Source: a virus (lineage: Duplodnaviria > Heunggongvirae > Uroviricota > Caudoviricetes). From it: 31,098 bases of DNA. Shown one piece after another: positions 1 through 31,098 of this stretch; the first letter of the stretch is position 1; each line of letters opens with the position of its first letter. The translations under genes were made by a program, and so were the position numbers. The notes beneath the pieces were generated by a model, which was not told where the DNA came from, made no database searches, and was given only the letters and a program-made list of their open reading frames with translations. Location of the stretch: the IMG/VR virus record IMGVR_UViG_3300028591_000077; one strand, 5' to 3'.

Positions 1-1
1 C

Positions 2-712
2 GACCCTGATAAAGATGGAAAAGATGATGAAAAATATGCATGTCCAGGCTCTGGTGGCGGCGGTGGTGGCATCCTATGAGGTGTTATAAATCTTACCGGT
101 AGTGACGCAAATCATGGCTATAAAATAACCGTTGGAGCAGGTGGTAGCTGTGGAAAAAATGCTAGAGCTGGTAAAAATATTTTAGGTGCAACCGGTGGAA
201 ATGGTGGAACAACTACCCTTTTAGCTAATTTTTCAGACTGATCCACTAGTAGCACTGGCTATAAAACTCTTGCACAAGCACATGGTGGAAGCGGCGGTAA
301 TTATGGCCACTGGACTGGTGTAATTGGTGGAGGAGCTGGTGGAACATGTGAATACGACGATCGTTGCAAAAACCGTTGAGTATATCTTGGAGATAGCAAT
401 GGTGGTTCAGGAGCTAGCTGTGACCAAAATAATGACACCTGAAGTGAAGGAACTGATTTTGCAGTTATGTTCCTAAATGATGAATCTGAAAATGGTTCTT
501 ATACTTTAAAGGTTACAAACAATGGTATTAAAGCCTCACGTTCAGCAGATATTAATGCTAAAATCCCTGGTGGTTGTTCTTATGGAAGAGGCTCTAATCC
601 GGGAGGCAGTGCTAATGCTCAATATGGTGGTGGCGGTGCGAATTGTGGCGCTGACGATTCTACTTACACCGCTGGTAGCGGTGCTAAGGGCTATTGAGCG
701 ATTTTTTACTAA
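2..712 (+). CDS. Glycine-rich tail-fibre-type protein, C-terminal part (5' truncated; TGA=Trp)
   Basis: Frame open from nt 2 to TAA 710-712 if TGA at 77, 239, 377, 440 and 695 is Trp. GGGGGG, TVGAGG and GGNGGTT motifs and a GSGAKGYWAIFY end are typical of Gly-rich phage tail domains. Confidence 0.75.
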
Positions 713-801
713 TAAATAAATTATTATTTATATAATATATTATAAATTACATATTAATAATATTATTAAAATATATATTGTATAATATAAAAGGAGATTA
801 T

Positions 802-1248
802 ATGGCATTATTATTACAAAATAAAACATATTTAAAAGTATATAAAAACGGTGCCTTTGAAATATATAAGACAAAAGCTTCAAGAAATAGATTTAAAAAA
901 GCCACATCTCCACAAGAAGTTATTGATAAATATAATGAAATATTAAATAGCTTTATGAATAATGTTTCTCGTGAGCAAGCATACTATGACCCAAATGCTT
1001 TCTCAGACGATGCCATTGCTTGACAAGATGAAGCCTATAGATATTATAAAAACTTAACAAATTATAATACTGCTGAAGAATATCCATTGATGTCACAATA
1101 TATTCAAGATGTCAAAGATACGATTCCAGAGCTTGTCGAGTCAGGTGAAATATGAGTTCCTGATACTTGCAAAAATGTTAAAGATGTTTATGAATATATA
1201 AAGGAATATGAAATGTTTGGGCCAACAACAGAAGTAAAGGATGTTTAA
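802..1248 (+). CDS. Hypothetical protein, 148 aa (TGA=Trp)
   Basis: AAGGAG RBS before ATG 802; in-frame TGA at 1021 and 1153; TAA 1246-1248 abuts the next ATG at 1251. Confidence 0.8.
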
Positions 1249-1250
1249 AA

Positions 1251-1925
1251 ATGAAAGATTTAAGTATTTATGCAGTTCCAATGGTTCCTTCTAAGGGACA
1301 AAATCCAGATATTATGAAAAAGCAATTTGTCTGGAGAAAAACAGGCGTTTATGATGGCAACAGCGAAATTGTCGTTGCTCTTATGGAAGAGCCTATCTGG
1401 TGGAATAGACCATTAGAATCTGATAATTTATGTAAATTAGAACCAGATGGTATTTATAGTTATAATTTACCATTCTTATGGGATAGAGGATTATATAAAT
1501 CAGGCTATAACCTTTTATTAAATAAAAATTCCGTGCCTGTTGCAGCACAAATAAAAATCAATCCAAATTGGACCGCTGCTCAATTAAATTTATTACATCA
1601 TTTTATGATCAACGCCGCCTATGATGCTTTATTAGCTTTAGGTGTTGATGCTAAGAGATTAGAAAAAGTTCATAATGATTTATTATTTGATGGTAAGAAA
1701 TTTATGGGTGGTGAAGAAATTGAGCGTGGTGGCTGGTTTACTTCAGACTACATTATTACAATGCAATATAAGCCTGAAAAAGAAATCTTTGATAGATTAA
1801 CTGGTGAATTTGCTCAAAAACGTGGCATTACTGGTATTATTGAAGAAACTAATTTATTTACCAAAGAAGAATTTACCACAAAACTTTTAGAAAAAATTAA
1901 AGCTATTTTTGATCAATTAGATTAA
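1251..1925 (+). CDS. Biotin/lipoate-protein ligase (BPL/LplA/LipB) catalytic-domain-like protein
   Basis: HNDLLFDGKKFMGGE matches the family NDxxxxGxKxxG motif; the canonical RRxSGGG loop is not evident. Confidence 0.6.
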   Translation: MKDLSIYAVPMVPSKGQNPDIMKKQFVWRKTGVYDGNSEIVVALMEEPIWWNRPLESDNLCKLEPDGIYSYNLPFLWDRGLYKSGYNLLLNKNSVPVAAQIKINPNWTAAQLNLLHHFMINAAYDALLALGVDAKRLEKVHNDLLFDGKKFMGGEEIERGGWFTSDYIITMQYKPEKEIFDRLTGEFAQKRGITGIIEETNLFTKEEFTTKLLEKIKAIFDQLD

Positions 1926-1941
1926 TTAAATGTCATTAAAA

Positions 1942-1978
1942 ATAAAATAAAAAGCCATTAATTGGCTTTTTATTTTAT
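1942..1978. terminator. Bidirectional intrinsic terminator
   Basis: 16-bp perfect inverted repeat ATAAAATAAAAAGCCA-ttaat-TGGCTTTTTATTTTAT. Confidence 0.8.
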
Positions 1979-2069
1979 GTATATAAAAAATAGATTTATT
2001 AAATTTATTTTTTATAGTATTTGCTAAATTATATGATAAAGCCTATAATAGGAGGTTTAATGATATTAT

Positions 2070-5000
2070 ATGATTACAAAAGGTATAATTACTGCTATCG
2101 ATTTAACAGGCAATACTTGTAAAGTTCGTATGCCTCTTTTTGAAACCGCTGGGAATGACCCTATCATTGGTGATGCTACAATTTCAAATACTCCTGGAAG
2201 CTATAATGGCTATAAGGTAAATGATGTTGTTTGGGTTGCTTTTGAAGATGGTCAAATGGACACCCCAGTAGTTATAGGCAAATTATACTTAGGTGTTGAA
2301 CGAGAAAAGAGTGACCCTCGTGGCGTTTTAAATGTTGTAGATTCTAGTGTAAGTAAGTCAGCTACAATTCCAGCTGATACAAAGCTTGGTGCAGAACTTG
2401 ATAAGAATGTTCCAAATACTACTGTTCCATATAATTCATTATTCAGCATTGCAACTAATGTAAGTGCACTTAGAACTGATGTAGATCAAAATGATAGATT
2501 TTATAATAATAAATTTACATCCATCATTAATGGTGTTGATGAGTGGGGAAATAAGTTATCTTCTATCATTGAGCAAACAGAGAAAGACATCAGAGCTGAA
2601 GTTAAAGGAAAAGTTCCTAAATATTCTTCAGATGATGCTGAATATGAAACAGGCTTTGGTTGGGATTTGACAGCCAGAGGTTGGAACGTATATAGACGTT
2701 CAAATAAAGATGACAAACCAAATAGCGAAAATTTATTTGTATCAATAAAAGCCATTAAAGAACTTGGACATGGTACTTATTTTTTCACAAACAGTAAATA
2801 CTGAAACAAGGTTTATTTATTTGCTTGGAAATCTACTGCTACAAATTCTCAAAACGCTGTATGGCCTGGTGTTGAATTAACAAATATAGTAGACAAAAAC
2901 GCGTATGAACAGAATATTTATAAATTTACATTAAACACTGAGCTATATGATTATATTATTTTTAATGATGGCACTAGCAGCTTTCCAACAAACCAAACCG
3001 TTAATATTTATGCATTAGGTTTAATAGGAAATAATAATGCTTGGTATGTTACTGATGAAAAAGATACAGAAGGTTCATCAGCAACCAGAAATGTCTGGAA
3101 GGCTGGACAGTGGCCTAAACCTGATGCTTCTGGTGATGATACTCGTGAATATGTAGATTATATCATGATTAATGATGCTATGACAGGAAGACTAGCATCT
3201 ACTTTGGTTATTGAAGAAGGTGAGACTTTAACAGAAGCGCTTTTAAAACTAAAAAGCGGAATTACTTGGGATGACTCTGCAAAACTTTGGAGATGGCCAG
3301 CAAATGATATCCCAGAATATGCAAATAAAACAATTAATATACCAGCAATCGCTGTTGACAGACGAAATATTTTAAGTGCTGATGAAAATGGTTTATCAGT
3401 TTATGGAACAATCAAAGCTACTGATGGCTTGATTGGAGAATTTAATATTGGTAAACGTCATGATTGCACAGCACTTGGACAACTAGCTTCTGGTATATAC
3501 ACGACAGGATATAAAGATACCAGCGGCAAACAAATCGAATCCTTTGAGCAAATACCAGCTACAAATGCAAAAGGCGTTTATGTTGGAACAGACGGCATTA
3601 GACTTGGTAGTAATTTTAGCGTTAGCACAACTGGCGAAGTTGTTGCCTCCGATATTACACTTACTGGCTATCCAACAGATGAGGAATTATCAGCGGCTAT
3701 CACGACAAAGAACGCAACATATTATGAGACTAAAGCAAATGATCCAGCTGTAGTCCACAGCGATACTATAAAAAAAGGTGATATTTGATTTATTACAGAT
3801 GCTGCAGATGGCGAAGAAACGATGAAACAATGAGATGGCACCAGCTGGCAAAATATAGGTGGTACTCTATTAGCAAAAACGCTAACTACAGAAATCCTAA
3901 ATGCAAAAAACATCTCAGCAAATTCATTGACTGTTAGAGATGCAGGCGATACCGGAAATCTAATATTCAGCGCAAATGACGCACAAAGCGGAACTACAAA
4001 TGCTGTTATAATGGGTGGTGAAGTACTACGTTATGGCTTACGTGTAAGCGCTACTAGCATGAATACTGCTGGTCTTGATCAATATACTGGTGGCGTTGGC
4101 TTTAATACAAGTGTTGAGAAGGCAGGTGCCTATAGAGCATACGTCCGTATGTATGATGCAAGAAAATATATAAACCTTTATGATATTGTTATTAAAGTTG
4201 TTAATATGAATGATCATAACACAATATATGGAACCGGTAGTATTGAAAGCTTTGACTATTGAAGTGATACAGATGTATATGCTTTATTTGATGTAAATAT
4301 ACCAGAAGGAATGATTGGCAAATATCTTTATCTCATAATTGAGGCTACACAAAGTAGCACCAGTCATTATAGTGACTATAAAATAGAAGGTGCATTATCA
4401 TTAAAAAACGTCGGATTTAGGGTTACAAACGGCATGATCAATGCCGGGGAAAACGGTTTTTATGGAAATATACTATTATCATCTGTGGGCACTCATGGTG
4501 TAGCCATGGACGAGTCACGTGATGACTGAACACTAAAAATAGGCCCAAATTTTGGCATAACATCTTTAGGTGACATTTATGCAAAAGAAGGAAAAATAGG
4601 TGGTTGAGAACTTACTAAAGATCATTTAATAAAGCAAGTGCCAGACCCAGACCGCACTGGAGAAAAGATTGCTGGCGTTATGCTGAATTCATCAGTCGCA
4701 GAAAAAGATGATGTAGCAATACGTACCCCATTCAGCATTGAAGGTGGATTATTTAAGTTTATTAGCAAATATATACCTGTAGGAGGTCTTGGCAGAAGCG
4801 TGTATGATGGCGGCATCTCACTAGATGATGGACTTTATTACGCATCTGGCTCTGGCGAGCGTATTGTTTATTCATATTTTAATATCTCATTAGCTCATTT
4901 ATGCCAAGCATTATATTGATATAGCGGTGAAAATGGTCTTATTGAAAATCCACGAATGTATGGCTCCGATAGAGCATGAATGCCAATTCGATGCACTAAG

Positions 5001-5249
5001 TATACCACAAGTAACGAGAGTGGCAGCAGAACATGGACAATAACCGCCGCTGATGCATATGCTTCAAAAATTATAGCTGCCATTTGTTACAACCGCGACG
5101 TTAAAGATGTCAGCGTTGCAGATGATGGCGGCTCGGTAACAATAACAACGATTAGTTCAGAAACATCAATATCTGCGTTAGTTTTCAGCATTAACTATAA
5201 TGACAATAAATGAGCGAAAAAATGGCAGTCAAATACTAGTGCCAGTTAA
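2070..5249 (+). CDS. Baseplate spike/tail fibre protein, 1059 aa (TGA=Trp), with Gp5/gpV-like OB-fold N-terminus and internal CBM26-like domain
   Basis: The track ORFs at 2070, 3165, 3927, 4311, 4638 and 4980 share one frame. They are joined by TGA at 2802, 3786, 3831, 4260, 4527, 4605, 4917, 4977 and 5211, ending at TAA 5247-5249. Motifs: DVVWVAFEDGQMDTPVVIGKLY, GDI[W]F...KQ[W]DGTSW, GKIGG[W]EL. Confidence 0.85.
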
Positions 5250-5273: not shown

Positions 5274-5666
5274 ATGATTTATTATATACAGGATAAGAAC
5301 ACAAAAGCAATAACCTCAGCGATTTGTGCAGAACCACAGAATAAAATAGCCGACTTTGCAGCTTATGAAATCTGCCGAGAAGAAGATTTCGATATAGTCA
5401 ACGGCTTCGACGGCAAGCGCTATTTTAGAAAGGACACAGAAAGCCCAGAGTATTTAAAGCGCAAAGAAGAGCACCTCAAAGCTAGAGATATAGAAGACCT
5501 AAGAAAAAAGCGCGAAGAAGAGTGTTTTTCAGTAATAAATAGAGGAACTCTGTGGTATGAACAATTAACTGCAGAACAAAAAAACGATTTAAAAAATTGA
5601 TATAATGCCTGACTAGATGTAACAGATACAAAAAAAGCACCTGCAAAACCAGAATGATTAAATTAA
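5274..5666 (+). CDS. Tail-fibre-associated small protein (assembly-chaperone-like), 130 aa (TGA=Trp)
   Basis: Readthrough of TGA 5598, 5610 and 5655 gives LTAEQKNDLKN[W]YNA[W]LDVTDTKKAPAKPE[W]LN, a C-terminal motif I recognise from proteins downstream of Firmicutes phage tail fibres. Confidence 0.75.
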
Positions 5667-5770: not shown

Positions 5771-6616
5771 ATGGCTGAAGAAATTAAAATACAAAACGTT
5801 ACAACTGAAGAGCTTAGATTCGGTCAACAAATGGAAAAAGCTGAAGATAAGCAACGACTTATAGAATTAGTTATTAAACTTGGATGCAAGCATGCGCTTG
5901 ACCTAGGTGCAGGCACTGGATTTATTGCTAAGCAATTAAGTTTGAATGGCGTAAAAGCCGATGCAGTTGATTGCAACTTCAAAACAGAAAGCTATCAAAA
6001 TACTGAAATGCTTACTTACTATCCGACAGACTTGCTCAAATATGTTGAGTCAACAGAGAAAACCTATGATTGCATTATCCTTAGCGCTGTCCTTCATGAG
6101 CTTCCTCCAAAAGTCCGTAAGAGACTTCAAAAGGGGTTAAGGAGAATCGCAGATAAAAACCATTGTTTGATTCTTATTCGTGAACCTTACTATGAAAAAA
6201 TGAAGGATGGCAGAATTCGTCCATATTTGAGCTTAGAGACACAAAAATCCATTGCTACTGAAATCGAACTACTCACTCCAGAAAAAGATGTGTATGAGTT
6301 CAAAAAGACTCACAAATTAAGCTCTGGATTAATAGATACAGTTCCATCTGTAATTAAATCATTAAACCTTGTTTTTACAAGAAGCTATGGAAGCCAAAGC
6401 TGGGAACGTGAAAAGCATGAACATCGATTCGCCTTTTCAAGAAAATACCTTGAAACATGGTGTAAAGGAATTCTCGGCGTAGGAATTAAATTCACACATG
6501 AAATTTATGATAAAGACTATAAAGAATATTTTAAAAAAGCTGGTTATACACCGAACATCGCAAACGGAATCGAGTATACCAACTGCCTCATTGCAGCAGA
6601 ACTTGGAGGAAAATAA
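5771..6616 (+). CDS. Class I SAM-dependent methyltransferase, substrate unknown
   Basis: ALDLGAGTG motif I, DAVD, and YDCIILSAVLHEL motif. Confidence 0.85.
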   Translation: MAEEIKIQNVTTEELRFGQQMEKAEDKQRLIELVIKLGCKHALDLGAGTGFIAKQLSLNGVKADAVDCNFKTESYQNTEMLTYYPTDLLKYVESTEKTYDCIILSAVLHELPPKVRKRLQKGLRRIADKNHCLILIREPYYEKMKDGRIRPYLSLETQKSIATEIELLTPEKDVYEFKKTHKLSSGLIDTVPSVIKSLNLVFTRSYGSQSWEREKHEHRFAFSRKYLETWCKGILGVGIKFTHEIYDKDYKEYFKKAGYTPNIANGIEYTNCLIAAELGGK

Positions 6617-6617
6617 T

Positions 6618-7196
6618 ATGGGAAAGAAAGACCCTTTAAATACTTTAGGTGCAACAAACCATAGCAGAAAAGAACGTAGTGTCTTAGATTACTATGGGAC
6701 AAACCCTGAGGCCGTAAAACAACTACTAGCCAAAGAAAAGTTCAGTCATTTGATTTGGGAGCCTACTTCAGGGCATAACAATATCACAAATGTTTTAAGA
6801 GAATCTGGATATGATGTTATGGCTACCGATATTTATGACTATGGCTGTCAAGACAAAATTATGGATTTCTTAGAATATAATGCCAGAGGCGTCGATCGTT
6901 GTGATATTATTATGAATCCACCTTATTATGACGCAGAACCATTTGTTACAAAAGCATTAGAAGCAGTCGCACCTGGTTATAAAGTCGCCGCATTCTTACG
7001 CCTTCTTTTCTTAGAAGGACAAAGCCGTTATAATAATATTTTTAAAGACAATCCTCCCAAGACAATCTATGTTTTCAGTAAACGTCAAGTATGTTCAAAA
7101 GTAGATGATTTCACCGAAGGTTCAGCTGTCGCCTACTGTTGGATAGTGTGGGAAAAAGGTCACAAGGGTTCTCCTGAGATTAAGTGGATTGCCTAA
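6618..7196 (+). CDS. Phage DNA (amino-)methyltransferase, NPPY type
   Basis: GGAGG RBS before ATG 6618; DYYGT.PEAV..LL, IWEPTSG and DIIMNPPY motifs. Confidence 0.75.
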   Translation: MGKKDPLNTLGATNHSRKERSVLDYYGTNPEAVKQLLAKEKFSHLIWEPTSGHNNITNVLRESGYDVMATDIYDYGCQDKIMDFLEYNARGVDRCDIIMNPPYYDAEPFVTKALEAVAPGYKVAAFLRLLFLEGQSRYNNIFKDNPPKTIYVFSKRQVCSKVDDFTEGSAVAYCWIVWEKGHKGSPEIKWIA

Positions 7197-7298
7197 ATAA
7201 ATTGGCTAAATTAAATGATATAAAATAGTTTTGAAATGCCCCAGAGGATGGGGCTTTCTTAGCCTTTTTAAGATACATCACAGAGAGGAAATAGATAA

Positions 7299-9539
7299 AT
7301 GGTAGTAGTAAAAAGAGACGGTACTGCTGTTGATTTTAATAGCCAAAAAATCAGAGCAGCTATCACAAAAGCAAACGCAAGAACAAACGAAATGAACGAT
7401 GAAGACATTGAAAGAATCGTCACAATCGCAGAAAACAAATGCATTAGACTTGGCGAAAAATTCAGTGTCGAAGACATTCAAGATATAGTAGAAGATACAT
7501 TATTAAAAAGTAAGTTCAATAGAACTGCAAAATCTTATATCTTATATAGAGATGAAAGAACAAGAAATAGACAAATAAAAACAAAGCTAATGAAAGACAT
7601 TAGCAAAAAATTAAATGCAACAAACATCGTAAACCAAAATGCAAATGTTGATGAGCACTCTTTTGGCGGTCGTAAAGGTGAAGCTGATAATGAATTAATG
7701 AAGTGGTTTGCTCTTAACAATATTGTTTCTAAAAAGAGCAGAGATAACCATTTAAACAACGAAATCTATATACACGATTTAGACTCTTATGCAGTCGGTA
7801 TGCATAACTGCTTATCAATTCCATTTGATAAACTATTAGCAGAAGGTTTTGAGACAAGACAAACAGACGTCCGTCCTGCGGGTTCAATTAACACAGCTTT
7901 CCAATTAGTTGCTGTTATATTTCAATTACAAAGCTTACAGCAATTCGGCGGTGTTGCCGCAACCCACTTAGACTGGACAATGGTTCCTTATGTTAGAAAA
8001 AGCTTTCTAAAGCATTATATTTTTGAGTATTTAAAAGATACTGAAGAATTCTATAATCTCAATCTTGAATCATTGTCTGATGAAGAAATCGACGACTGGG
8101 TTAAAGAAAACAAACATAAATATCTTGATATGTGGCAACGTAAAGAAGAAGACTTCTATATTGGCAATGAAGACTTAGACAGACGTTTCTATCAAAAAGC
8201 ATTATTCGAAACACGTAGAGAATTAATGCAAGCAGTTGAAGGTATGTATCATAACCTAAATACTCTTCAATCAAGAAGTGGCAATCAACTTCCGTTCACT
8301 TCAATTAACTACGGAACCTGCACCTTACCTGAGGGTAGAATGGTCATCAGAGCTTTATTAGAAGGAAGTTTGAACGGTGTTGGTCACCTACATAAGACTC
8401 CAATATTCCCTTGTGGAATTTTCCAAAAGATGAAAGGGGTTAATGATAAAGGTTCGCCAAACTATGATTTATATCAATTAGCTCTTAAATCTACAGCAAA
8501 ACGTTTATATCCAAACTATGCGAATGTAGACTGGAGTAACAATGCAGGTTATGACAGAAATGACCCAGCAACCTACTTTAGCACAATGGGTTGCAGAACT
8601 GCTAATGGTGCAGACATTAATGCTGAACCAGGAGTCAACCCACAAACCAAAGATGGTCGTGGTAATTTATGTCCTGTCACAATCATTATGCCTACTCTTG
8701 CCATGGAAGCCGGCGGAGATGTTGATTCCTTCTTGGCTATCTTAGATACTAAGATTCATGAAGCAAAAGACATGCTTATCGAACGTTATGAATACATGTG
8801 TTCTCAAGATGCCTCATCAGCAAAATTCATGTATAAGAATGGAACAATGATGGGCTATCATCCTGAAGAAGGAATTAGAAGTGCATTAAGACATGGCACA
8901 CTGGTTATTGGTCAGTTGGGTCTTGCCGAAACATTACAAATTCTTATTGGTAAAAACCACTTAACTCCAGAAGGAATGCAATTAGCAAAGCGTATTGAAC
9001 AATTATTCAAAGACAGATGCGCAGAATTTAAACAAAAATATAAATTAAACTTTGGCGTTTATTATACTCCAGCAGAAAACTTATGTTATACTGCTATGAA
9101 AAAATTCAAAGAAAGATATGGAGAAATTCCAAATGTATCTGACAGAGATTATTTTACTAATAGTATTCATGTTCCTGTTTGGGAAAAAGTTGATCCATTC
9201 GAAAAAATCGATATTGAGTCTCAACTAACTGGTTATTCAAATGCTGGCTGTATCACTTATGTTGAATTAGAGGGAGCAGTTATTAGTAATCTCGAAGCTT
9301 TGGAAGCCATCGTAGACTATGCTATGGAAAAAGATATTCCATATTTTGCAGTCAACGTTCCTAATGACACTTGCTTATCTTGTGGTTATACAGGTGAATT
9401 CAACGACAAATGCCCAATGTGCGGTTCAGAAGATATTCAACAACTCAGAAGAGTTACAGGATATCTTACTGGCAACTACAAAACTGCCTTCAATTATGGA
9501 AAACAAAAAGAAGTTGAAGATAGAGTAAAACACGCATAA
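7299..9539 (+). CDS. nrdD: Anaerobic (class III) ribonucleoside-triphosphate reductase with N-terminal ATP cone
   Basis: VVKRDG ATP cone, IYIHDLD, TMGCRT, CLSCG/CPMCG zinc site and RRVTGYL glycyl-radical motif. Confidence 0.97.
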   Translation: MVVVKRDGTAVDFNSQKIRAAITKANARTNEMNDEDIERIVTIAENKCIRLGEKFSVEDIQDIVEDTLLKSKFNRTAKSYILYRDERTRNRQIKTKLMKDISKKLNATNIVNQNANVDEHSFGGRKGEADNELMKWFALNNIVSKKSRDNHLNNEIYIHDLDSYAVGMHNCLSIPFDKLLAEGFETRQTDVRPAGSINTAFQLVAVIFQLQSLQQFGGVAATHLDWTMVPYVRKSFLKHYIFEYLKDTEEFYNLNLESLSDEEIDDWVKENKHKYLDMWQRKEEDFYIGNEDLDRRFYQKALFETRRELMQAVEGMYHNLNTLQSRSGNQLPFTSINYGTCTLPEGRMVIRALLEGSLNGVGHLHKTPIFPCGIFQKMKGVNDKGSPNYDLYQLALKSTAKRLYPNYANVDWSNNAGYDRNDPATYFSTMGCRTANGADINAEPGVNPQTKDGRGNLCPVTIIMPTLAMEAGGDVDSFLAILDTKIHEAKDMLIERYEYMCSQDASSAKFMYKNGTMMGYHPEEGIRSALRHGTLVIGQLGLAETLQILIGKNHLTPEGMQLAKRIEQLFKDRCAEFKQKYKLNFGVYYTPAENLCYTAMKKFKERYGEIPNVSDRDYFTNSIHVPVWEKVDPFEKIDIESQLTGYSNAGCITYVELEGAVISNLEALEAIVDYAMEKDIPYFAVNVPNDTCLSCGYTGEFNDKCPMCGSEDIQQLRRVTGYLTGNYKTAFNYGKQKEVEDRVKHA

Positions 9540-9552
9540 GAGGCAAATTGTT

Positions 9553-10587: not shown

Positions 10588-10588
10588 T

Positions 10589-21909: not shown

Positions 21910-21911
21910 CA

Positions 21912-21933: not shown

Positions 21934-21939
21934 CATACA

Positions 21940-22175: not shown

Positions 22176-22247
22176 AAAAAACCTATTTACAGAATATCAG
22201 AATCATGGTATAATATTAATGTGAGTGAATGAAGGAGGAAATTAGTA

Positions 22248-22760: not shown

Positions 22761-22789
22761 TCGCTAAATTATTAGATAAGGAGATCATC

Positions 22790-22999: not shown

Positions 23000-23066
23000 A
23001 AAATAAAAAAGCCGTTTACGAAGACGGCTTTTTACGTTATAATTATTTATGTAAGGAGATGAGAAC

Positions 23067-23237: not shown

Positions 23238-23306
23238 AACCGTTTACGAATATCATTAAACATGATATAATATAATTGACAAAGATAAAAGGAGGAATTA
23301 AAATCT

Positions 23307-23741
23307 ATGTCAGACAATAAAGAACGTTCCGTCAGGGAATGGCAAAAACTATTTGAGGCTGGAGTCTTCGACTCTCATGACGTCCGCTGTCAGTGTGCCG
23401 CCGGTTGGTATGACTGGTTCTGCAAGGAATCTAGTTTGGCCGGCAAAACCAAAAGGTTAGGAAGCCTCGTCAAGCAAGTCAAAGACGGTGGTAAGGTTGA
23501 CCTTGACAGTATGTATGTCTGGTTCAAGAACAACTGTCCTTGTGTTGGTCCACTCTACGATGACTTCCGATTCGCCGATCGTGAAACCGGTGATGTTCAA
23601 TTCACTATCGCCGTCGGTGATACTCGTGCCGAACATCGTTATGAAGTTTGGGGTCGTCACAATGACTTTAGCGGTCCGATCATCGGCTTCGATACTTCCA
23701 AAGAATTGATTAAGTGGCTTAACCAACCTTGGCAAGAATAA
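23307..23741 (+). CDS. Hypothetical early protein (GWYDWFC...FKNNCP motif)
   Basis: Own promoter; AAGGAGGAATT RBS; 144 aa; 7 Trp, all TGG. Confidence 0.8.
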   Translation: MSDNKERSVREWQKLFEAGVFDSHDVRCQCAAGWYDWFCKESSLAGKTKRLGSLVKQVKDGGKVDLDSMYVWFKNNCPCVGPLYDDFRFADRETGDVQFTIAVGDTRAEHRYEVWGRHNDFSGPIIGFDTSKELIKWLNQPWQE

Positions 23742-23809
23742 ATTAAAAAAGGGGTTTACAAACCCCTTTTTTCGTGATATAATATATACAGAAAGAGTGA
23801 GGAACTATT

Positions 23810-23983
23810 ATGGAAAAAAAGAAAATTCACATTGTCGTCGCCGATGGAAGGGTTGAGTCCATCTTCTCTGATGAAGACCTTGACGTCGAAGTCATCGATT
23901 TTGACGGAGACTATGAAGAACAACAGAAGTTGGGCGACTATGTTGACGAACTCCGTGCCAACCTTAAGGAGGTTGTCTGCTAA
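23810..23983 (+). CDS. Small acidic protein, 57 aa (missed by the ORF track)
   Basis: GTGAGGAA RBS; MEKKKIHIVVADGRVESIFSDEDLDVEVIDFDGD...; TAATG overlap with the next gene. Confidence 0.75.
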   Translation: MEKKKIHIVVADGRVESIFSDEDLDVEVIDFDGDYEEQQKLGDYVDELRANLKEVVC

Positions 23984-24180
23984 TGAAGTTCGAGATTCAA
24001 TACATCCGTTCTTGCGGCGACCTTAACGAACATGTCTTGTATGAGGAACTTGAATTCAACAGCAAGACTAAAGCGTTAAAGCACGCTCGCGAAACCAAAA
24101 AGAAAATAGCGAGCGAATGTCATTACAGATTCCCTCGCGATATCATAAACTACATTATTAAAGAAATTGATAAAAAGTAG
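23983..24180 (+). CDS. Hypothetical protein
   Basis: AAGGAGG RBS; 65 aa. Confidence 0.7.
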   Translation: MKFEIQYIRSCGDLNEHVLYEELEFNSKTKALKHARETKKKIASECHYRFPRDIINYIIKEIDKK

Positions 24181-24236
24181 TTTACAAATCAAAGAAACCA
24201 TGATATAATACAAATATAGTTAAGGAGGAAAACATT

Positions 24237-24479
24237 ATGTCAGCATTTTATGGGATGGTCCGTGGAAACCGCGGAGCCGCAACTCGTGGAGGTTCTAAGA
24301 ACTCAGGTTACAAAGCAACCTGTCAGTCTTGGGACGGTTCAGTAATCGTCACTATGGATTATGACAACGAAGACAAGCTCAAGGTTCGCCTTGAAGTCGC
24401 CGATAGTTCTTCTACTTACGGCGATGTCGTCTTCAGCGGAACTCTTCAAGAGCTTAAGGAAAAGCTCTCAGCGAAATGA
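24237..24479 (+). CDS. Hypothetical early protein, ending at TGA (or TAA 24488 if read through)
   Basis: Own promoter; AAGGAGG RBS; ATGA overlap with the next gene. Confidence 0.75.
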   Translation: MSAFYGMVRGNRGAATRGGSKNSGYKATCQSWDGSVIVTMDYDNEDKLKVRLEVADSSSTYGDVVFSGTLQELKEKLSAK

Positions 24480-24646
24480 AGACCATAACGATCGAACTCA
24501 CTGAAGACGAAGCGGAAGTAGTGGATAACTACATATTCAGAAAGATGTGCCGACTTGAAGAAGCACATCTCGAAGAGTCATTCTGCTATCCTAACTTAGC
24601 CTCGGCACATCGTAAGATACAGCGAGCTCGAAAAGAAAATAAATAA
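24476..24646 (+). CDS. Small hypothetical protein, 56 aa (missed by the ORF track)
   Basis: ATGA-coupled; MKTITIELTEDEAEVVDNYIFRKMCRLEEAHLEESFCYPNLASAHRKIQRARKENK. Confidence 0.7.
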   Translation: MKTITIELTEDEAEVVDNYIFRKMCRLEEAHLEESFCYPNLASAHRKIQRARKENK

Positions 24647-24709
24647 AAAAAGGGTTTACAAAAGCCCTTTTTTATGTTATAATATATATATAGAAAGTGA
24701 GGAATGTAT

Positions 24710-25042
24710 ATGGAAACACATACAATCAAATTGGATACAGAAGTCGTCGGGACAAAGGTATTGTTCGCCGGCAAGACTAAAAAGATTGAACTCAATAAGT
24801 ATTATGATTTAGATGGAACAATCATCAATGAAGGCAAAGACACTATCAACTATGAAAATGAAGTGCCATTCGAAATCATCGAAAAGAAAGTCAAATACAA
24901 CTGGAAGTATGTCTCTCCGCAAGTATTAGAGCATTGGGAAATCAAAGTCAATGGCATGAGGATATGCACTGACGTCGAATTGACTGGATACAAAGTTCTC
25001 AAAACCAAATTAGTATTGACTGGATGCACAGGAGCAGGCTAA
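24710..25042 (+). CDS. Hypothetical early protein
   Basis: GTGAGGAAT RBS favours ATG 24710. Confidence 0.75.
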   Translation: METHTIKLDTEVVGTKVLFAGKTKKIELNKYYDLDGTIINEGKDTINYENEVPFEIIEKKVKYNWKYVSPQVLEHWEIKVNGMRICTDVELTGYKVLKTKLVLTGCTGAG

Positions 25043-25329
25043 TGGAAAAGTATTACAAAGTAAGAACAAAGAACATCGACTACGATGTTACAGCGGAAGA
25101 TTTAAATTACGACCGCTACGACATTGACATCGACGACATGGATGAAGCAGAAATCGATAAGCACATCGCTGAAGTCAAGAACAGCATTCAGCAAGAGTTC
25201 ATCTTGGAAATCGAATGCGAACCTGAAGACCTAACCGATATGGTGTGTGATGCCATCAGTGAAGAGTCTGGCTGGCTAGTCAACTCATTCGACTTCGATG
25301 TTCTTGAAGAAAAAGAAATAGAAGATTAA
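25042..25329 (+). CDS. Highly acidic small protein
   Basis: TAATG overlap; D/E-rich throughout. Confidence 0.75.
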   Translation: MEKYYKVRTKNIDYDVTAEDLNYDRYDIDIDDMDEAEIDKHIAEVKNSIQQEFILEIECEPEDLTDMVCDAISEESGWLVNSFDFDVLEEKEIED

Positions 25330-25332
25330 ATG

Positions 25333-25360
25333 CCACAGGGAAACCTGTGGTTTTCTTTTT
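25333..25360 (+). terminator. Intrinsic terminator with GAAA tetraloop
   Basis: CCACAGG-gaaa-CCTGTGG then TTTTCTTTTT. Confidence 0.85.
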
Positions 25361-25530
25361 TCGAATTTGTACGCGCATCGGATTGGATTTCCGATAAAAA
25401 CTACTAATAGTAGAAAATAGCTGCGCATCTGGATCCCCGGCGCGGATCGGTGGATCGAAAATAAGTTTAAAAAACTATTTACAAATATCTTAAGTTGGTG
25501 TATAATTATATTAGAGAGTGAGGAAATATT

Positions 25531-25839
25531 ATGAATTTAAGAAGATACTACATATTCCAATTACCACACAACAATCCTAAATTGTTTAGGCACTTTAAAG
25601 AAGATGAGACCATCGACTTAGGAGACTATACACCTGTATGGACCGATGAGTGTGGTTATCAGAATGACTTAGAACTCTGTGAAAAGTTATTCGAACAATT
25701 CAACATCAATCATCCTAAGAACTTCGCCGGCCATTCAATGTCAGTCAGTGATATCGTTATGATTAAAGATGGCAAAGACTGTAAGTTCTATTATTGTGAT
25801 GCCGTTGGTTTTAAAAAGATTGAAAAAATAACAAAATAA
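25531..25839 (+). CDS. YodL-domain protein
   Basis: YYIFQL...LFEQFNINHPKNFAGHSMSVSDIVMI...YYCDAVGFKKI matches the YodL-like family signature. Confidence 0.85.
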   Translation: MNLRRYYIFQLPHNNPKLFRHFKEDETIDLGDYTPVWTDECGYQNDLELCEKLFEQFNINHPKNFAGHSMSVSDIVMIKDGKDCKFYYCDAVGFKKIEKITK

Positions 25840-25899
25840 ACCGTTTACAAAAACGGTTTTTTATAGTATAATATAAGTAAGAAAAGTGAGGAATTAATT

Positions 25900-26622
25900 A
25901 TGTTTTACAAAAAAGGAATCGATATTACGAACGCAAAGTCTATGTATGACTTCCTGCACAATCATTATAAGTATTTTACTTTGAATAGCTGGAACTGCCT
26001 TAAGTCAGTCGCTAACAACGTTAAGCTATATAATCTCAATCTTGATGGCGATATGTGGGTAGCTCATGCTTTTATTCAAGGTGGTGAATACGAAGAGATC
26101 AATGAAATGATTCGTGAATTCGAACGTCTTCATCAAGGATACAAAGTCGGCTTCAATGGAAGAAGCGATGGTTATTTAGTCCTTTATAATAAGGATAATA
26201 ATAAGGATGTGCTTCCTGATATCATTGTCGATTATGACTATGAAGACTTCAAGTATTATGTCAAAGACTATTATGGCTCATTGAAGAACTATATGAGTGA
26301 ACTCGTATTCTATACTAAGTTAGTTCAGGACTTTGATAAGCTTTGTGACGATATCAGAGACTTCGTTAATGAATTGTCTAAGCTTGACTTCAAGGCTACT
26401 AAGCTCGAAGAAGCTGTGGAGATGTTCAATAACGACTACTGTGAAGACCTCGAAGCTTTAGAGTTCGGTCCATTGAAAGTGGAAGACGGCAAAGTCTATG
26501 TCGGATACATCAAGCAACTCAAATGTCTCTTTGAAGCATTTATCAAATATGCTGATAGATATGAAGACGAAGGCTATGAGTCTGTGTGCTCTGGCGAATA
26601 TGTTTATCTCAAGGAGAAATAA
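25900..26622 (+). CDS. Hypothetical early protein
   Basis: Own promoter; 240 aa. Confidence 0.8.
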   Translation: MFYKKGIDITNAKSMYDFLHNHYKYFTLNSWNCLKSVANNVKLYNLNLDGDMWVAHAFIQGGEYEEINEMIREFERLHQGYKVGFNGRSDGYLVLYNKDNNKDVLPDIIVDYDYEDFKYYVKDYYGSLKNYMSELVFYTKLVQDFDKLCDDIRDFVNELSKLDFKATKLEEAVEMFNNDYCEDLEALEFGPLKVEDGKVYVGYIKQLKCLFEAFIKYADRYEDEGYESVCSGEYVYLKEK

Positions 26623-26623
26623 T

Positions 26624-26941
26624 ATGGAAGAAATAAAAGTAGATTTAGAAGGTCTAGAGGACTTCGATCTGAAATCCGCCAAATATCAACTTTGGGTTTT
26701 CAAGTATGACAAGGACCAAAACATATTAGACGACAACATTATGCTTGGGGAATTCAAAACTCCCGATGCGGCGATCACTAAGGCAAAAGGATTAGTGATA
26801 AATTCCAAAGCTATGATGAATCTGGTTACCGACGAATCTTATTATCTTCAAGTAGAGGTAGAGACTGTCGTCGATACTGGAGACGGCGAAGAAAACGTCG
26901 GCACAATCTTTCAGGAAAACATACAAATGAAAGAAATTTAA
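26624..26941 (+). CDS. Hypothetical acidic protein
   Basis: AAGGAG RBS before ATG 26624. Confidence 0.75.
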   Translation: MEEIKVDLEGLEDFDLKSAKYQLWVFKYDKDQNILDDNIMLGEFKTPDAAITKAKGLVINSKAMMNLVTDESYYLQVEVETVVDTGDGEENVGTIFQENIQMKEI

Positions 26942-27013
26942 AAAAAAACTGTTTACAAATAGAAAAAATCAGTTTATAATATTATTGAAAGAAAATAAAG
27001 GAGAACAACTTTC

Positions 27014-27292
27014 ATGAAAAAAACAAAATATCTTAATCAGCAATTCGGTGTCTGGACTTGTGTTAAAGTCAATGTCTATCGTGTTCAACCTGCCTTCTTA
27101 AAAGGTTCTAAGGTTCGTTCCGCTCGTCCTCATCACCAAACCTACTCTTACGTTTTAGCTGCTAACATCTTAGGCAACGACGTTCATGTCGAACTCAATG
27201 CTAAAGAAGCTGCTCAAATGTATCGTGGCGAATTCGATCCTGTCTTCAAGGTCTTGGCCAAACAAGATAGTGCTGTCATCGCCATTCGCTAA
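27014..27292 (+). CDS. Hypothetical protein
   Basis: Own promoter; AAGGAG RBS; 92 aa. Confidence 0.75.
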   Translation: MKKTKYLNQQFGVWTCVKVNVYRVQPAFLKGSKVRSARPHHQTYSYVLAANILGNDVHVELNAKEAAQMYRGEFDPVFKVLAKQDSAVIAIR

Positions 27293-27328
27293 ACATTACG
27301 ACTTATTAATTGAAAGGAGGAAGTCACA

Positions 27329-28180
27329 ATGTTAAATGATATTAGAAAAGATTGTATCAAATACGCAAAGTGCTTAGGTGACTATCAGGCGATGTCTTGT
27401 GACGAACTCGCCGATGGTTATTGCAAAGCCCGCGATGAAGGAGATTCCATTAAGGATTCTCAATATCTTGCTGCTTTAGTCTTACGCTTTTGGTATACCA
27501 TCAAGAAAATCTTTGATAAGTGTCCAAATGTCGGTATGACTTTAGAAGATGCTTATTGCTGGTTAGTAGAAGCAATCGAATATGCCTGCAAATACCGTAA
27601 GTGGAAAGACTCTACAAATAAAGTCAATGCCCAACAATGCATCAATCAATGCATCGAGACCATTCGTTTACAACATTATTATGAAATGAACCTCGATAAG
27701 CATAAGGCTAACTATATGACCGTTTCTATGGAAACTCCTATCGCTGAAGATGGAGATTCTGAAAAGACTTTAGGCGAAACTTTAGTCGGAGACGATGGCG
27801 CTACTGACCGTGCTAAGAATGATGTCGAACTTACCGTTCAACAATTCATCGACCGCAACAAAGTCGTAGAAGCCATCATCATAGATACTATCGCTTTCAA
27901 CGATTGTCAGAAGTATACTAAAGAAGTAGTTCGTGGAGAAGATGAGGAAGGCAATCCTTACAAATACACTAAGACCTATTCCGAATTCTGGCCATTCAGA
28001 GTCGTTCAAATCTTAGGTAAACTTCCTGAAGACTACTTTGAATACTTCACTGGCAAATACAACATCACAACCGAAAAGTTAGATGCTACTCTTGCTGCGA
28101 TTCGCAAAGCAAACAATCAAAAACTCTACAAGTATGTCGATTCAACACTCGCTTCCTTGAAGAGCTACTTGAAAATGTAA
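27329..28180 (+). CDS. Divergent sigma70-family RNA polymerase sigma factor
   Basis: Region-2-like helices (ELADGY...ALVLRFW...EDAYCWLVEAIEYA) and region-3-like VSMETPIAEDGDSEKTLGETL (cf. SLDxPIGEDGD). Confidence 0.55.
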   Translation: MLNDIRKDCIKYAKCLGDYQAMSCDELADGYCKARDEGDSIKDSQYLAALVLRFWYTIKKIFDKCPNVGMTLEDAYCWLVEAIEYACKYRKWKDSTNKVNAQQCINQCIETIRLQHYYEMNLDKHKANYMTVSMETPIAEDGDSEKTLGETLVGDDGATDRAKNDVELTVQQFIDRNKVVEAIIIDTIAFNDCQKYTKEVVRGEDEEGNPYKYTKTYSEFWPFRVVQILGKLPEDYFEYFTGKYNITTEKLDATLAAIRKANNQKLYKYVDSTLASLKSYLKM

Positions 28181-28245
28181 TTTGCTAAATTTCGAAATAA
28201 AGGCTCCTTAATGGAGCTTTTTATATTGTATAATATAATAGGTAT

Positions 28246-28299
28246 ATGGAATTGAAGAGATTCCAAAATGGGCCATTCTGGGCTCAAATAAACTACTAG
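28246..28299 (+). CDS. Putative 17-aa leader peptide (uORF)
   Basis: ATG 11 nt after TG-TATAAT (28227-28234); MELKRFQNGPFWAQINY; its TAG overlaps the AGGAGGG RBS of the next gene. Confidence 0.35.
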   Translation: MELKRFQNGPFWAQINY

Positions 28300-28308
28300 G
28301 AGGGATTT

Positions 28309-29064
28309 ATGCCTGCATTAGACGCATTGTGCCCCACAGAGCACGTTATAGTTAATAAAACTGCTATTAAACTGTTAGGTTTAGAGACCGCAGTGTATTG
28401 GTCTGAACTTATGACAGTTCTTAAACAAGTCAAACTCAAAGGAACCGTAAAAAACGGGTTTTTCAAATTAGACAGAAAGTATATGGAGAGAGAAACGGGA
28501 ATTCCTCGCGATCGCCAATATCTCTGCGATGCTATTTTAGCGGAAAACGGAATCATGTTGATCTCAGAATCCGATGCGGATCATCTTGCGGTGAATTTGC
28601 CGAATTACGCCGCACTCATCATGGATGGGGAGTACGATGCGGTAATGGAGAATTCCACTAAGATTAGGGAAAAAGCCGAAAAGGCTGCCGCCCCGAAGAA
28701 AGCTCGCAAGGTTCTTACTGAAGAGGAGAAGGAAGCGAAGCGAAGAGGAATGATCGCTAATTTGTGCAATTTCGTCGTGGAGCCGGATACAGACCTACAC
28801 GATGCGTACTGTAAGTGGATTGCCACTTTAGTGGGAAACAGCCGAATCAACAGTACGACCGTTTCGACATTCGTCTCGACGATCCAGAAATCTGGGCTGC
28901 CAAAAGCTGGCCAGCTTTTCACTATCGAAAGAGCGACCGCTAATTGCTGGGTAGAAGCTTCTTGGGTGATCAACATCGCTCGTCAGGAAATGGCAAAGAA
29001 TCCGGCAGCATTCTCTACACCAATAACCACTACTAAAGTTGACAAGTCTGGACAAGGATTTTAA
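28309..29064 (+). CDS. Replication initiator/replisome-organiser-like winged-HTH protein
   Basis: NKTAIKLLGLETAVYWSEL...GFFKLDRKYMERETGIPRDRQ resembles phage initiator N-termini; C-terminal IERATANCW resembles DnaD-like ends. Confidence 0.5.
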   Translation: MPALDALCPTEHVIVNKTAIKLLGLETAVYWSELMTVLKQVKLKGTVKNGFFKLDRKYMERETGIPRDRQYLCDAILAENGIMLISESDADHLAVNLPNYAALIMDGEYDAVMENSTKIREKAEKAAAPKKARKVLTEEEKEAKRRGMIANLCNFVVEPDTDLHDAYCKWIATLVGNSRINSTTVSTFVSTIQKSGLPKAGQLFTIERATANCWVEASWVINIARQEMAKNPAAFSTPITTTKVDKSGQGF

Positions 29065-29138
29065 ATAATATTTAAAAAACTGTTTACAACCTCTTGATAT
29101 CATGATATAATAATATCAGAAAGAAAAGAGGAATTAAA

Positions 29139-29393
29139 ATGAAAAAAACAATCTACATCTTAACTGAAGCCGTCTCTGATGATGATGGAAACTTCTATGC
29201 TGATGTTTGTTCCGTCCATACTTCTAAAGACGAAGCGACAAAAGCACTTGCCAAACTTCATAAAGAAGTAAAGTCTTACTTCGAAAATCCAAATGACGAT
29301 TATTGTCGTGGAATGTGGTATGACATTTGTGAAGACGATGATATTGGCATTCGTCGTTCTGCTCGTATTGATAAGAAAGAAATCAATGTGTAA
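29139..29393 (+). CDS. Hypothetical early protein
   Basis: Own promoter; GAGGAATT RBS. Confidence 0.75.
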   Translation: MKKTIYILTEAVSDDDGNFYADVCSVHTSKDEATKALAKLHKEVKSYFENPNDDYCRGMWYDICEDDDIGIRRSARIDKKEINV

Positions 29394-29411
29394 TTAGGAG
29401 GAATTCAAAAT

Positions 29412-29789
29412 ATGGAAAAATTTTATCCTGAAGTCGGAACAGAACTCTATCTGTCTCAGAGGACTGGAAACTATTATGTCGATATGGTTAAGACTCCTTA
29501 CACCGTCATCGGCACGAATCGCGGCAAAGTCCAAATTCAATCTTGTAAGTTGATTGCTCCTGTCTATCACTGTGTCGGCAATCCTTATCTTGATAGACCT
29601 GACCTTGAAGGACAAAGAGTGTTCTTCTATGACACCGTTGCTGAGAGTATTGAACCTGACCCCGAAGGTGAAGTGTTAGAACTCAGTTGGGCTCCTAAAC
29701 ACGAACGTTGGCAAATCGACCGTTATAAAACTGGTTATCCTGAAATCGCTCACTTCGGTAAATACGAACACCAACCTTATCTCGATTAA
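29412..29789 (+). CDS. Hypothetical protein
   Basis: AGGAGGAATT RBS; terminator at 29798-29820. Confidence 0.8.
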   Translation: MEKFYPEVGTELYLSQRTGNYYVDMVKTPYTVIGTNRGKVQIQSCKLIAPVYHCVGNPYLDRPDLEGQRVFFYDTVAESIEPDPEGEVLELSWAPKHERWQIDRYKTGYPEIAHFGKYEHQPYLD

Positions 29790-30014
29790 CGAAAATCAAA
29801 CTGGCAAAAGCCAGTTTTTTATTTCGCAGTTTTCTCCGGAATCAATCCGAATCGTACGGAAATTTCGGAAAAAACCACTAATCTAGTAAGTTCTGCCAAA
29901 GCTTTCGATCCCCCAAATTCGGCAGGTAAAGAAGTTTGTAATTTTATGAATAAACTGTTTACAAGAAGTATAATCTGTGGTATAATTATAATATAAGAAA
30001 GAGGTAAAACAATT

Positions 30015-30302
30015 ATGGTTAAAAAAGAAAAAGACGTTTTCAAGAAAGACTTATCTACAGTCGAAGGAAGTTATACGAAAGAGTTGAACGATCACATTCA
30101 AGAAATCAATTCTAAGTTCGAAGACAACTCAATCGATACGAACGGTTATAGAGACTTCATCGTTAAGACTATTGAGAAGGCTCATGACACACCGGCAAAA
30201 AGAAAATTCCTATTCAATCTTTCTAAGAAGAAAACCAAATATGAGATTCTATTCTATGTGACGAGTTCATACTTGAACGGAAGTAAATTAGGAGTCATTT
30301 AA
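30015..30302 (+). CDS. Hypothetical early protein
   Basis: Own promoter; GAGGT RBS. Confidence 0.75.
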   Translation: MVKKEKDVFKKDLSTVEGSYTKELNDHIQEINSKFEDNSIDTNGYRDFIVKTIEKAHDTPAKRKFLFNLSKKKTKYEILFYVTSSYLNGSKLGVI

Positions 30303-30382
30303 TGACTTCTTTTTTATTAAAAAACTATTTACAAAGTATATAAAACATGATATAATTATTATATAAGAAAGAGAGCAAAAAA

Positions 30383-30694
30383 ATGAGCTACAAACAAAAA
30401 ATTCTCAATGACTTCTATGTCGACCTATTCTCTACCGTCTACAATGATTATCCTTCAGTCGTTCAGAACGCTAAGACCGACATTCTCTGCGACAACATCG
30501 AAATCAGTTTCGAAGACTGGCTTGATGAATTGATTGATACTTATTGCTACAACAACAAGCAAGACATCGAAGCCATCAAGAAAGCCATCGAAGCAGAACC
30601 TCAATTCAAAGAAGATCTGAAATCAGAATTTGATTATCTTAAAGAAGAAGTCGCCGAAGAATTTGAAGACTCCGACGATGAAGACGAAGATTAA
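30383..30694 (+). CDS. Highly acidic small early protein
   Basis: Own promoter; D/E-rich, ends EEFEDSDDEDED. Confidence 0.75.
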   Translation: MSYKQKILNDFYVDLFSTVYNDYPSVVQNAKTDILCDNIEISFEDWLDELIDTYCYNNKQDIEAIKKAIEAEPQFKEDLKSEFDYLKEEVAEEFEDSDDEDED

Positions 30695-30767
30695 TTCTTC
30701 GCCTTTTTTATTTACAAATATTGTTTTTCGCGTTATAATATATATAGAAAGAAAAGAGGTAAGCAAA

Positions 30768-31061
30768 ATGCACTTAAACACACAAGACTTAATCAACAAG
30801 ACGACTGGTAAGAACAAATCATTCTTAAAGAGAGTCGCCAAACATCAAGAAGAGAAATACGGAAACGTCGACATCTTCGAAGCCACAATTAAAGACGAAA
30901 ACGATATTGAAGTTTGCTTCGGAGAAAACTGGATTAGATTCTTCTTCAGAGATGGCAAAGTCTACGACACCATTGGAATTGGACAAGGGCATAAATACCA
31001 TCAGTCAATCCAAAACGTCGCCGAAGAACTCCATAAACAATGCGTGATTGGAAATCTATAA
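30768..31061 (+). CDS. Hypothetical early protein
   Basis: Own promoter (30711); GAGGT RBS favours ATG 30768. Confidence 0.75.
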   Translation: MHLNTQDLINKTTGKNKSFLKRVAKHQEEKYGNVDIFEATIKDENDIEVCFGENWIRFFFRDGKVYDTIGIGQGHKYHQSIQNVAEELHKQCVIGNL

Positions 31062-31098
31062 TAGACCTTTCTCCTTCTGCAAAAGGCTCGAAGATAAT

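Follow-up and report, generated by a model that had tools for sequence, protein, structure and literature searches.

Block-wise use of TGA as a predicted tryptophan codon in a sheep-rumen giant phage with a putative early region marked by promoters

Introduction

Is TGA a sense codon, a stop codon, or both, in the genome of one phage? The question is raised by a stretch of 31,098 nucleotides from an uncultivated giant phage of the Caudoviricetes (IMG/VR record IMGVR_UViG_3300028591_000077), hereafter called the window, in which in-frame TGA codons interrupt genes of a tail block and a helicase operon and are absent as sense codons from all other genes. The explanation that we favour, and hold with good confidence, is a code switch imposed by the phage on a host using the standard code, in which TGA would be a stop or avoided in early genes and would be read as tryptophan (Trp) in the tail and helicase genes.

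Look-ups of exact proteins identified the window as the start of a 131,032-bp ENA metagenome contig of sheep-rumen origin (ERZ27256846). An ENA scaffold of 237,135 bp (ERZ28612947, scaffold_44) shares 96.8% DNA identity with window positions 6693-23797, and the rest of the genome was viewed through this near-identical scaffold, as far as a point that corresponds to about 104 kb. Identical proteins are also present in Logan assemblies from other runs; the runs holding the phage are labelled as sheep gut metagenomes, belong to several studies, and include RNA libraries among the data sets. A near-DNA search of isolated phages with the window gave no match. Helicases of Clostridium, Bacillus, and Streptococcus phages share 33-37% identity with the SNF2 helicase, and 24 related loci were found in IMG/VR, with 39-63% identity and on contigs of up to 233 kb. 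In the following, L001-L023 denote related loci and other L numbers further loci, P0030 and similar numbers homologue proteins, and G001 and G002 related TGA-recoded contigs.

In-frame TGA codons and their distribution

All genes of the window are located on the plus strand. Reading TGA as a sense codon makes eight open reading frames whole, which together contain 27 in-frame TGA codons:

2..712, plus strand: 3′ part of a Gly-rich tail-associated protein (Pfam Gly_rich_2, PF21722); five TGA, at 77, 239, 377, 440, and 695
778..1248, plus strand: gene of unassigned function; two TGA, at 1021 and 1153
2070..5249, plus strand: tail spike or baseplate-hub-like protein of 1059 amino acids, with a Phage_base_V OB domain and CBM26; nine TGA and 15 TGG
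5274..5666, plus strand: conserved protein of 130 amino acids; three TGA, at 5598, 5610, and 5655, at invariant Trp
16662..17081, plus strand: gene of 139 amino acids; two TGA, at 17040 and 17049, in the conserved C-terminal tail
18336..18680, plus strand: zinc-ribbon protein; one TGA, at 18426
18746..20461, plus strand: SNF2-family helicase; three TGA, at 18887, 19154, and 20180, and four TGG
20464..20919, plus strand: gene of 151 amino acids adjoining the helicase, conserved in position; two TGA, at 20647 and 20761

The eight genes, out of 48 in the window, belong to the tail block and the helicase operon. The remaining 40 genes have no sense TGA and encode Trp by TGG in 92 of 92 cases, so that the TGA/TGG split between the two gene sets has a Fisher p of 4e-13. 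Positions 5771-16150 contain 57 TGG and no TGA, and positions 21247-31061 contain 35 TGG and no sense TGA. Stop codons over the 48 genes are TAA in 44, TAG in three, and TGA in one. These counts reproduce the initial annotation of the window, which had listed 25 in-frame TGAs, or 27 with the gene at 16662/16695, had given all Trp codons as TGG in the two TGA-free blocks (56 of 56 and 34 of 34, against 57 and 35 in our recount), and had stated that nearly all genes end in TAA or TAG (47 of 48 here).

Two further genes or blocks complete the picture of the partition:

1251..1925, plus strand: tail-block gene without TGA; six TGG
5771..16150, plus strand: TGA-free block of 18 genes, including methyltransferases, NrdD (7299-9539), NrdG (9553-10092), and unassigned genes

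Since the gene at 1251..1925 lacks TGA and has six TGG, the use of TGA is mixed even within the recoded block. In the two TGA-free blocks, codons ending in A make up 78% and 69% of the Lys, Glu, and Gln codons, and off-frame TGA occurs 21-22 times per kb. Because A-ending codons are preferred and off-frame TGA is plentiful in these blocks, the absence of in-frame TGA is selected and not compositional. Identical split gene calls are present in independent assemblies, and the internal TGAs are therefore not an assembly error. All nine TGAs of the overlap (9/9) are kept in the near-identical scaffold, and none of the approximately 500 differences between the two sequences made a new TGA in a TGA-free gene. 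The nucleotide context after the sense TGAs showed no bias.

The guanine-cytosine (GC) content of third codon positions rises near position 14500, from about 0.2-0.35 in 1-14 kb to 0.4-0.64 in 14.5-31 kb. This boundary is not followed by the use of TGA.

Amino acid encoded by TGA

Judged by the aligned columns of homologous proteins, TGA is the codon of Trp in the recoded genes of the window. Eleven TGA sites fall on conserved or matching Trp: three each in the SNF2 gene, the Gly-rich protein, and the gene at 5274-5666, and two in the gene at 16662-17081. Codon 573 of the tail spike is an additional Trp-supported site beyond the eleven.

Codons 48, 137, and 479 of the SNF2 gene, which are TGA in the window, are TGG encoding Trp in 22, 16, and 16 relatives, respectively. 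At the three TGA sites of the gene at 5274-5666, Trp is found in 148, 149, and 145 of 149 aligned homologues; these sites are near the gene end, where stops were conceivable. This small protein (about 120 amino acids), encoded beside the tail spike, is a member of a family that comprises 682 representatives at 50% identity and has no Pfam or PHROG match. Four near-invariant Trp were observed in the C-terminal part of its members (P0040-P0188). Two homologues of the gene at 16662-17081, P0033 and P0038, which are called through in the standard code, possess Trp at both TGA sites; other homologues of this gene end exactly at the TGA sites through gene calling with code 11. For the Gly-rich protein, the standard-code homologue P0030 has W, W, F, W, and F at the five sites. 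The last of these, at 695, is a sense codon because it is part of the conserved C-terminus of the protein, ...A(I/L)FY.

Among the tail-spike sites, codon 573 corresponds to Trp in five of six homologues and codon 588 in three of eight, codon 245 in the CBM26 stretch falls on a variable column, and six C-terminal sites are outside homologue coverage. No relatives of the tail spike were found in IMG/VR, and the CBM26 stretch gave no match against PDB sequences. Similarly, a search of the gene at 778-1248 against phages found no homologue. In the helicase operon, the homology of the zinc-ribbon protein spans the TGA in 24 relatives, with a variable column at this site (A in 15, Q in five, others). 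The homology of the gene at 20464-20919 crosses both of its TGAs, at columns of L (15) and of Y (15) or W (1).

The initial annotation had already pointed to TGAs at the Trp of several motifs. Its reading is upheld for GDIWF (W in 5/6), for WYNAWLD (W in 148/149 and 149/149), and for the SNF2 sites, and in part for KQWDG (W in 3/8). It is not upheld for CPHCGW, where relatives have A or Q, or for CBM26, where the column is variable; the GKIGGW site is outside homologue coverage.

Two other meanings of TGA were considered and rejected. Code 25, in which TGA encodes Gly, does not agree with columns of W, F, Y, or L, where a single Gly was seen, in one divergent relative. Phages of Absconditabacteria and Gracilibacteria, which use code 25, have in common with the window that in-frame TGA is present, but there it encodes Gly, whereas the columns here are Trp or aromatic. 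Selenoprotein genes were rejected on account of the Trp columns and the distribution of 27 sites over eight unrelated genes; no search for selenocysteine insertion sequence (SECIS) elements was made.

Promoter array of the putative early region and TGA as a stop codon

The exact pattern TTTAC-N18-TATAAT, here called class 1, occurs 20 times in the window, 19 of them on the plus strand, against 0.04 expected. The promoter usually reads TTTACA-N17-TATAAT and often has TGn before the -10 box, as in extended -10 promoters. No class-1 site is located in 1-12900; sites are found at 12902 and 13637, as an overlapping pair at 17783/17788, and 14 times in 20933-30739. The following features were noted in this part of the window:

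20933..31098, plus strand: putative early region of about 20 small genes without sense TGA; 14 TTTAC-N18-TATAAT copies before genes
24477..24479, plus strand: TGA stop of the early gene 24237-24479, which is behind an early promoter and ends ...LSAK-TGA-R-P-TAA
27329..28180, plus strand: TGA-free gene with a weak sigma-factor-like match (phrog_351, E = 1.9e-5)

Many of the 14 class-1 promoters from 20.9 kb onwards lie beside a terminator hairpin and are followed by a strong Shine-Dalgarno sequence. A layout of promoter, terminator, and small gene is typical of the early regions that host RNA polymerase transcribes in large virulent phages. In the near-identical scaffold, the class-1 array starts at the equivalent of about 20.9 kb, continues to that of about 44 kb, and is found again before tRNA clusters. 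The product of the gene at 27329-28180 is conserved, with 48-57% identity in 13 related loci, and no sigma domain was found for it in Pfam.

The TGA at 24477 falls on precisely the column of the stop in the L019 homologue (...LGRK-TAA) and is kept in the near-identical scaffold, in which TGA also terminates other genes of the early region, backed closely by another TGA or a TAA. As the TGA at 24477 coincides with the stop of the homologue, TGA appears, from this alignment, to carry two meanings, Trp and stop, in one genome. The complete avoidance of TGA that had been described for the last block is thus corrected by one in-frame TGA that behaves as a stop.

A second box, GTATAATAT(A/T)AT, here called class 2, has no -35 element and was found in seven copies against 0.02 expected, at 5746, 10159, 11859, 17148, 18099, and 28228 on the plus strand and at 17995 on the minus strand. 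Plus-strand boxes are located upstream of the genes starting at 5771, 10171, 11887, 17162, and 28309, and the box at 18099 is upstream of the helicase operon. Class 2 may represent a class of middle promoters that depends on a phage factor. A further box, GCTAAATT, has five copies against 2.5 expected, a number reached by 9 of 100 shuffles, and is not significant by count.

Neither class of box is found at the tail genes. In the early array and in the tail block, the use of TGA is thus in line with promoter class. The TGA-free genes had been proposed to be early or metabolic. Their avoidance of TGA stands; the term early is not supported for 5.8-12.9 kb, where no such early promoter is located.

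tRNA genes and the rest of the genome

At least 31 tRNA genes, including Trp(CCA), are present in the near-identical scaffold, and the array continues past the covered stretch. A class-1 promoter is located 49 bases upstream of the first tRNA of this array. Beyond approximately 44 kb the scaffold has few TGA-holding genes, one of which encodes a fibre of 1,888 amino acids with five TGAs. The TGA-recoded contigs G001 and G002 possess 33 and 27 tRNA genes, respectively, and one transfer-messenger RNA each, with no clean UCA anticodon; the stretches read were L055 (G001:C1:112000-128000) and L056 (G002:C1:8500-13500). Exact-pattern scans with segments of tRNA-Lys and tRNA-Trp found nothing in the metagenomes of the Joint Genome Institute (JGI) or in IMG/VR.

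The tRNA genes bear on how TGA is decoded. Instead of a dedicated suppressor, tRNA-Trp(CCA) of the host or of the phage could read TGA at low efficiency and so tune the dosage of the products. This agrees with the tRNA-Trp(CCA) of the near-identical scaffold, with the 27-33 tRNAs lacking a clean UCA anticodon in G001 and G002, and with the report of Borges et al. (10.1101/2021.08.26.457843; Nat Microbiol 2022) that suppressor tRNAs are detectable in 35% of code-4 phage genomes. However, with read-through at ordinary rates, nine TGAs in a tail protein of 1059 amino acids would leave almost no full-length product, and the absence of a context bias after the TGAs also speaks against weak read-through, which we consider quite unlikely.

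Several neighbouring genes were observed around the tRNA arrays. Before the tRNA array of the near-identical scaffold (L120-L123) is a dense group of genes related to RNA repair and translation, namely genes for Thg1, two RNA ligases, a CCA-adding enzyme, PARG, and nSTAND3, as well as a Pnkp-like fusion of AAA_33, Metallophos, and RNA_lig_T4_1. In the corresponding region of the window's own contig, Pep_deformylase, NADAR, and YqeY are listed. On the minus strand of L055, positions 9230-9305 form a tRNA-like gene whose anticodon loop, CUCAAC, has 6 bases and contains UCA.

Genetic codes of related loci

The order of zinc-ribbon, SNF2, and downstream gene is constant in all 24 related loci; the codes in which these loci are written differ. 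In L001-L014 the helicase is free of TGA, the TGA sites of the window are TGG, and several genes end in TGA, with TAA within 1-5 codons after. Coding density shows nearby TGA recoding for L015, L016, L018, L019, L020, and L023 and TAG recoding for L017 and L022, where it is 0.91 under code 15 versus 0.34-0.56 under code 11. The SNF2 gene of L015 has three TGAs, only one of them at a position common with the window. That the code differs among close relatives speaks for a change of code made by the phage lineage itself and against a code that reflects the host's.

The relatives also bear on a historical explanation, in which the tail and helicase blocks were recently imported from a code-4 phage and the partition has no function. 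Such a mosaic origin would fit the heterogeneous third-position GC described above, and the NrdD proteins of the window and of the helicase relatives share only 28% identity, which indicates modules with different histories. However, TGA occurs in both low-GC3 and high-GC3 blocks, the gene order is constant in 24 loci, and relatives have TGG exactly where the window has TGA, which suggests an in-place change of TGG to TGA. The approximately 500 strain differences without a new TGA in TGA-free genes likewise disagree with a recent import, and we regard a mosaic origin as highly improbable.

In the 201-kb relative L019, the SNF2 gene (10001-12388) is about 2.4 kb long, versus 1.7 kb in the window, and has an in-frame TAA within the match, which suggests an inserted element, a putative intron or intein. 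The L019 locus has a GC content of 54%, versus 38% in the window.

Comparison with known recoded phages

Recoding of stop codons in late genes of gut phages had been described as known in the initial annotation, and the window matches the recoded gut phages of the study of Borges et al. That study describes large TGA-recoded phages of animal guts with predicted standard-code hosts, in which 26-71% of the genes are recoded, namely structural and lysis modules and, variably, replication genes. It also describes clades that mix codes 4, 11, and 15, a loss of TGA stop codons that precedes recoding, and about 90% recoded genes where the host has the code of the phage (10.1101/2021.08.26.457843). 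As replication genes are already reported there as variably recoded, the extension of recoding to the helicase block, which had been singled out for the window, is not in itself remarkable. A formal annotation of block-wise dual codes is provided by Mgcod (10.1101/2022.06.29.495998).

Borges et al. define membership in their Jade, Sapphire, and Agate clades by the phylogeny of the large terminase. No terminase was found in the window or in the approximately 97 kb covered of the near-identical relative, and lysis genes were likewise absent from the window. Similar to these clades, TGA is read as Trp in some genes only and TGA stops are nearly absent, recoding is concentrated in structural modules and variable in replication genes, and relatives have codes 11, 4, and 15. 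The large genome, the animal gut or rumen source, and the low-GC DNA are further common features. Unlike in these clades, the standard-code part of the window has the further marks of a consensus-promoter array and of one TGA stop. The dual-coded crAss-like phages (10.1101/2022.06.29.495998) are also organised in standard-code and stop-reassigned blocks, but they have Bacteroidetes hosts and mostly reassign TAG to Gln, whereas the phage of the window has Firmicutes-type promoters and ribosome-binding sites and a helicase closest to those of Firmicutes phages. The window is a clear case of a phage code switch that has already been described, and not a new kind. New here are the promoter-defined early array, TGA used as a stop, and the Trp evidence for 11-12 sites.

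In Mycoplasma and Spiroplasma, which use code 4, and in their phages, both TGA and TGG also encode Trp, but there genome-wide and constantly; in contrast, two thirds of the window fully avoid TGA and one gene ends in it. Could the host itself nevertheless use code 4, as Mycoplasma or Spiroplasma do, with TGA-free blocks caused by codon bias or recent import? The isolated phages with related helicases infect Firmicutes, the wider group of the code-4 Mollicutes, and the strong Shine-Dalgarno sites and sigmaA-like promoters are compatible with such a host. Set against this are the 92 Trp codons without a single TGA in blocks that prefer codons ending in A, the TGA at the stop position of the homologue at 24477 together with the TGA-ending early genes of the near-identical scaffold, and the relatives with TGA stops or TAG recoding. 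Moreover, 8 of 48 genes are recoded here, versus about 90% in phages that share the code of their hosts (10.1101/2021.08.26.457843). A code-4 host is accordingly very unlikely.

A proposed model of the code switch

For the phage-imposed switch in a standard-code host, the most likely course is that of the model of Borges et al. for recoded gut phages. The host would read the standard code, and the early genes would be translated at once; the first to be translated would probably be the small genes behind host-type promoters and the block of nucleotide metabolism. Host polymerase would transcribe the tRNA set of the phage from class-1 early promoters, and a UGA-decoding tRNA, probably from the large tRNA array, would be supplied by the phage. 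As this tRNA builds up, TGA-holding genes would yield full-length products, so that translation of the tail genes, and to a lesser degree of the helicase operon, would be delayed. The code of the host, the suppressor tRNA, and the timing are the parts of this model that we infer.

The same combination of a standard-code host and a phage-imposed switch had been proposed in the initial annotation. The reading of TGA as Trp and the partition are confirmed from it, and the switch itself is supported indirectly, by the promoter array of sigma70/sigmaA consensus, the alignment of the stop at 24477, and the relatives with TGA stops or TAG recoding.

Several observations weigh against the switch. No tRNA gene is located inside the window, and neither a release factor nor a tryptophanyl-tRNA synthetase (TrpRS) appears in the Pfam lists of approximately 100 kb of gene calls. 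The use of TGA is not cleanly tied to promoter class: the helicase operon, which holds TGA, follows both a class-1 promoter and a class-2 box, other genes with a class-2 box are TGA-free, and class-1 promoters are missing from the TGA-free block at 5.8-12.9 kb. Of the 27 TGA sites, ten are without homologue coverage or on variable columns. The closest cellular matches of NrdD (63-80%) are distributed across Bacilli, Clostridia, Erysipelotrichaceae, and Prevotella, and do not discriminate a host.

A further possibility, which we regard as rather unlikely, is that TGA is time-dependent within one infection, a stop first and Trp later, and that the six TGAs of the helicase operon would time a step of DNA replication as well as assembly. 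The helicase operon would then be transcribed from early- or middle-type promoters, and its delay would be set by the rate at which tRNAs of the promoter-driven phage array fill the cell.

Control region of the helicase operon and other features

One intergenic region precedes the helicase operon:

17663..18335, no strand assigned: intergenic control region of this operon, with the class-1 promoter 17783/17788 and the class-2 box 18099

The motifs GGGAGATTTCGTTTT and TAATAAATTAATAA are repeated in this region, which also has promoter-like sites on the minus strand near 18000. A hairpin, GGTGTTTTTTTT...AAAAAAAACACC, and a T run come directly after the class-1 promoter at 17788 (17783-17870), an arrangement which suggests a very short transcript or a putative attenuator ahead of the helicase operon. 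Many GGGAGATTTCGTTTT-like motifs were observed in the intergenic regions of the helicase module (16500-18745), with TAATAAATTAATAA repeats near 16560 and at 18160-18230. These iteron-like repeats beside an AT-rich unwinding element may form a replication origin.

In several bacterial contigs of metagenome-assembled genomes (L084, L086, L087, L090, L093, L094, L097, L098, and L108), the matches of NrdD extend over 3.1-3.3 kb, versus 2.2 kb. This difference in length suggests that the nrdD genes of these contigs contain candidate introns or inteins.

Implications

The tail and helicase genes are fragmented in every public gene call examined. As unrecognised recoding breaks up these genes, the annotation of rumen phages needs gene calling that is aware of the code. 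The published validation in PMC9523058 concerns TAG-to-Gln only, and proteomic proof of TGA-to-Trp recoding in phages seems to be still lacking in the literature. For the timing of a code switch, the locus offers a clean case, in which the promoter array, the TGA-free early genes, and the TGA stop are readable from the sequence. If the meaning of TGA is indeed time-dependent, recoding would time a step of DNA replication besides assembly.

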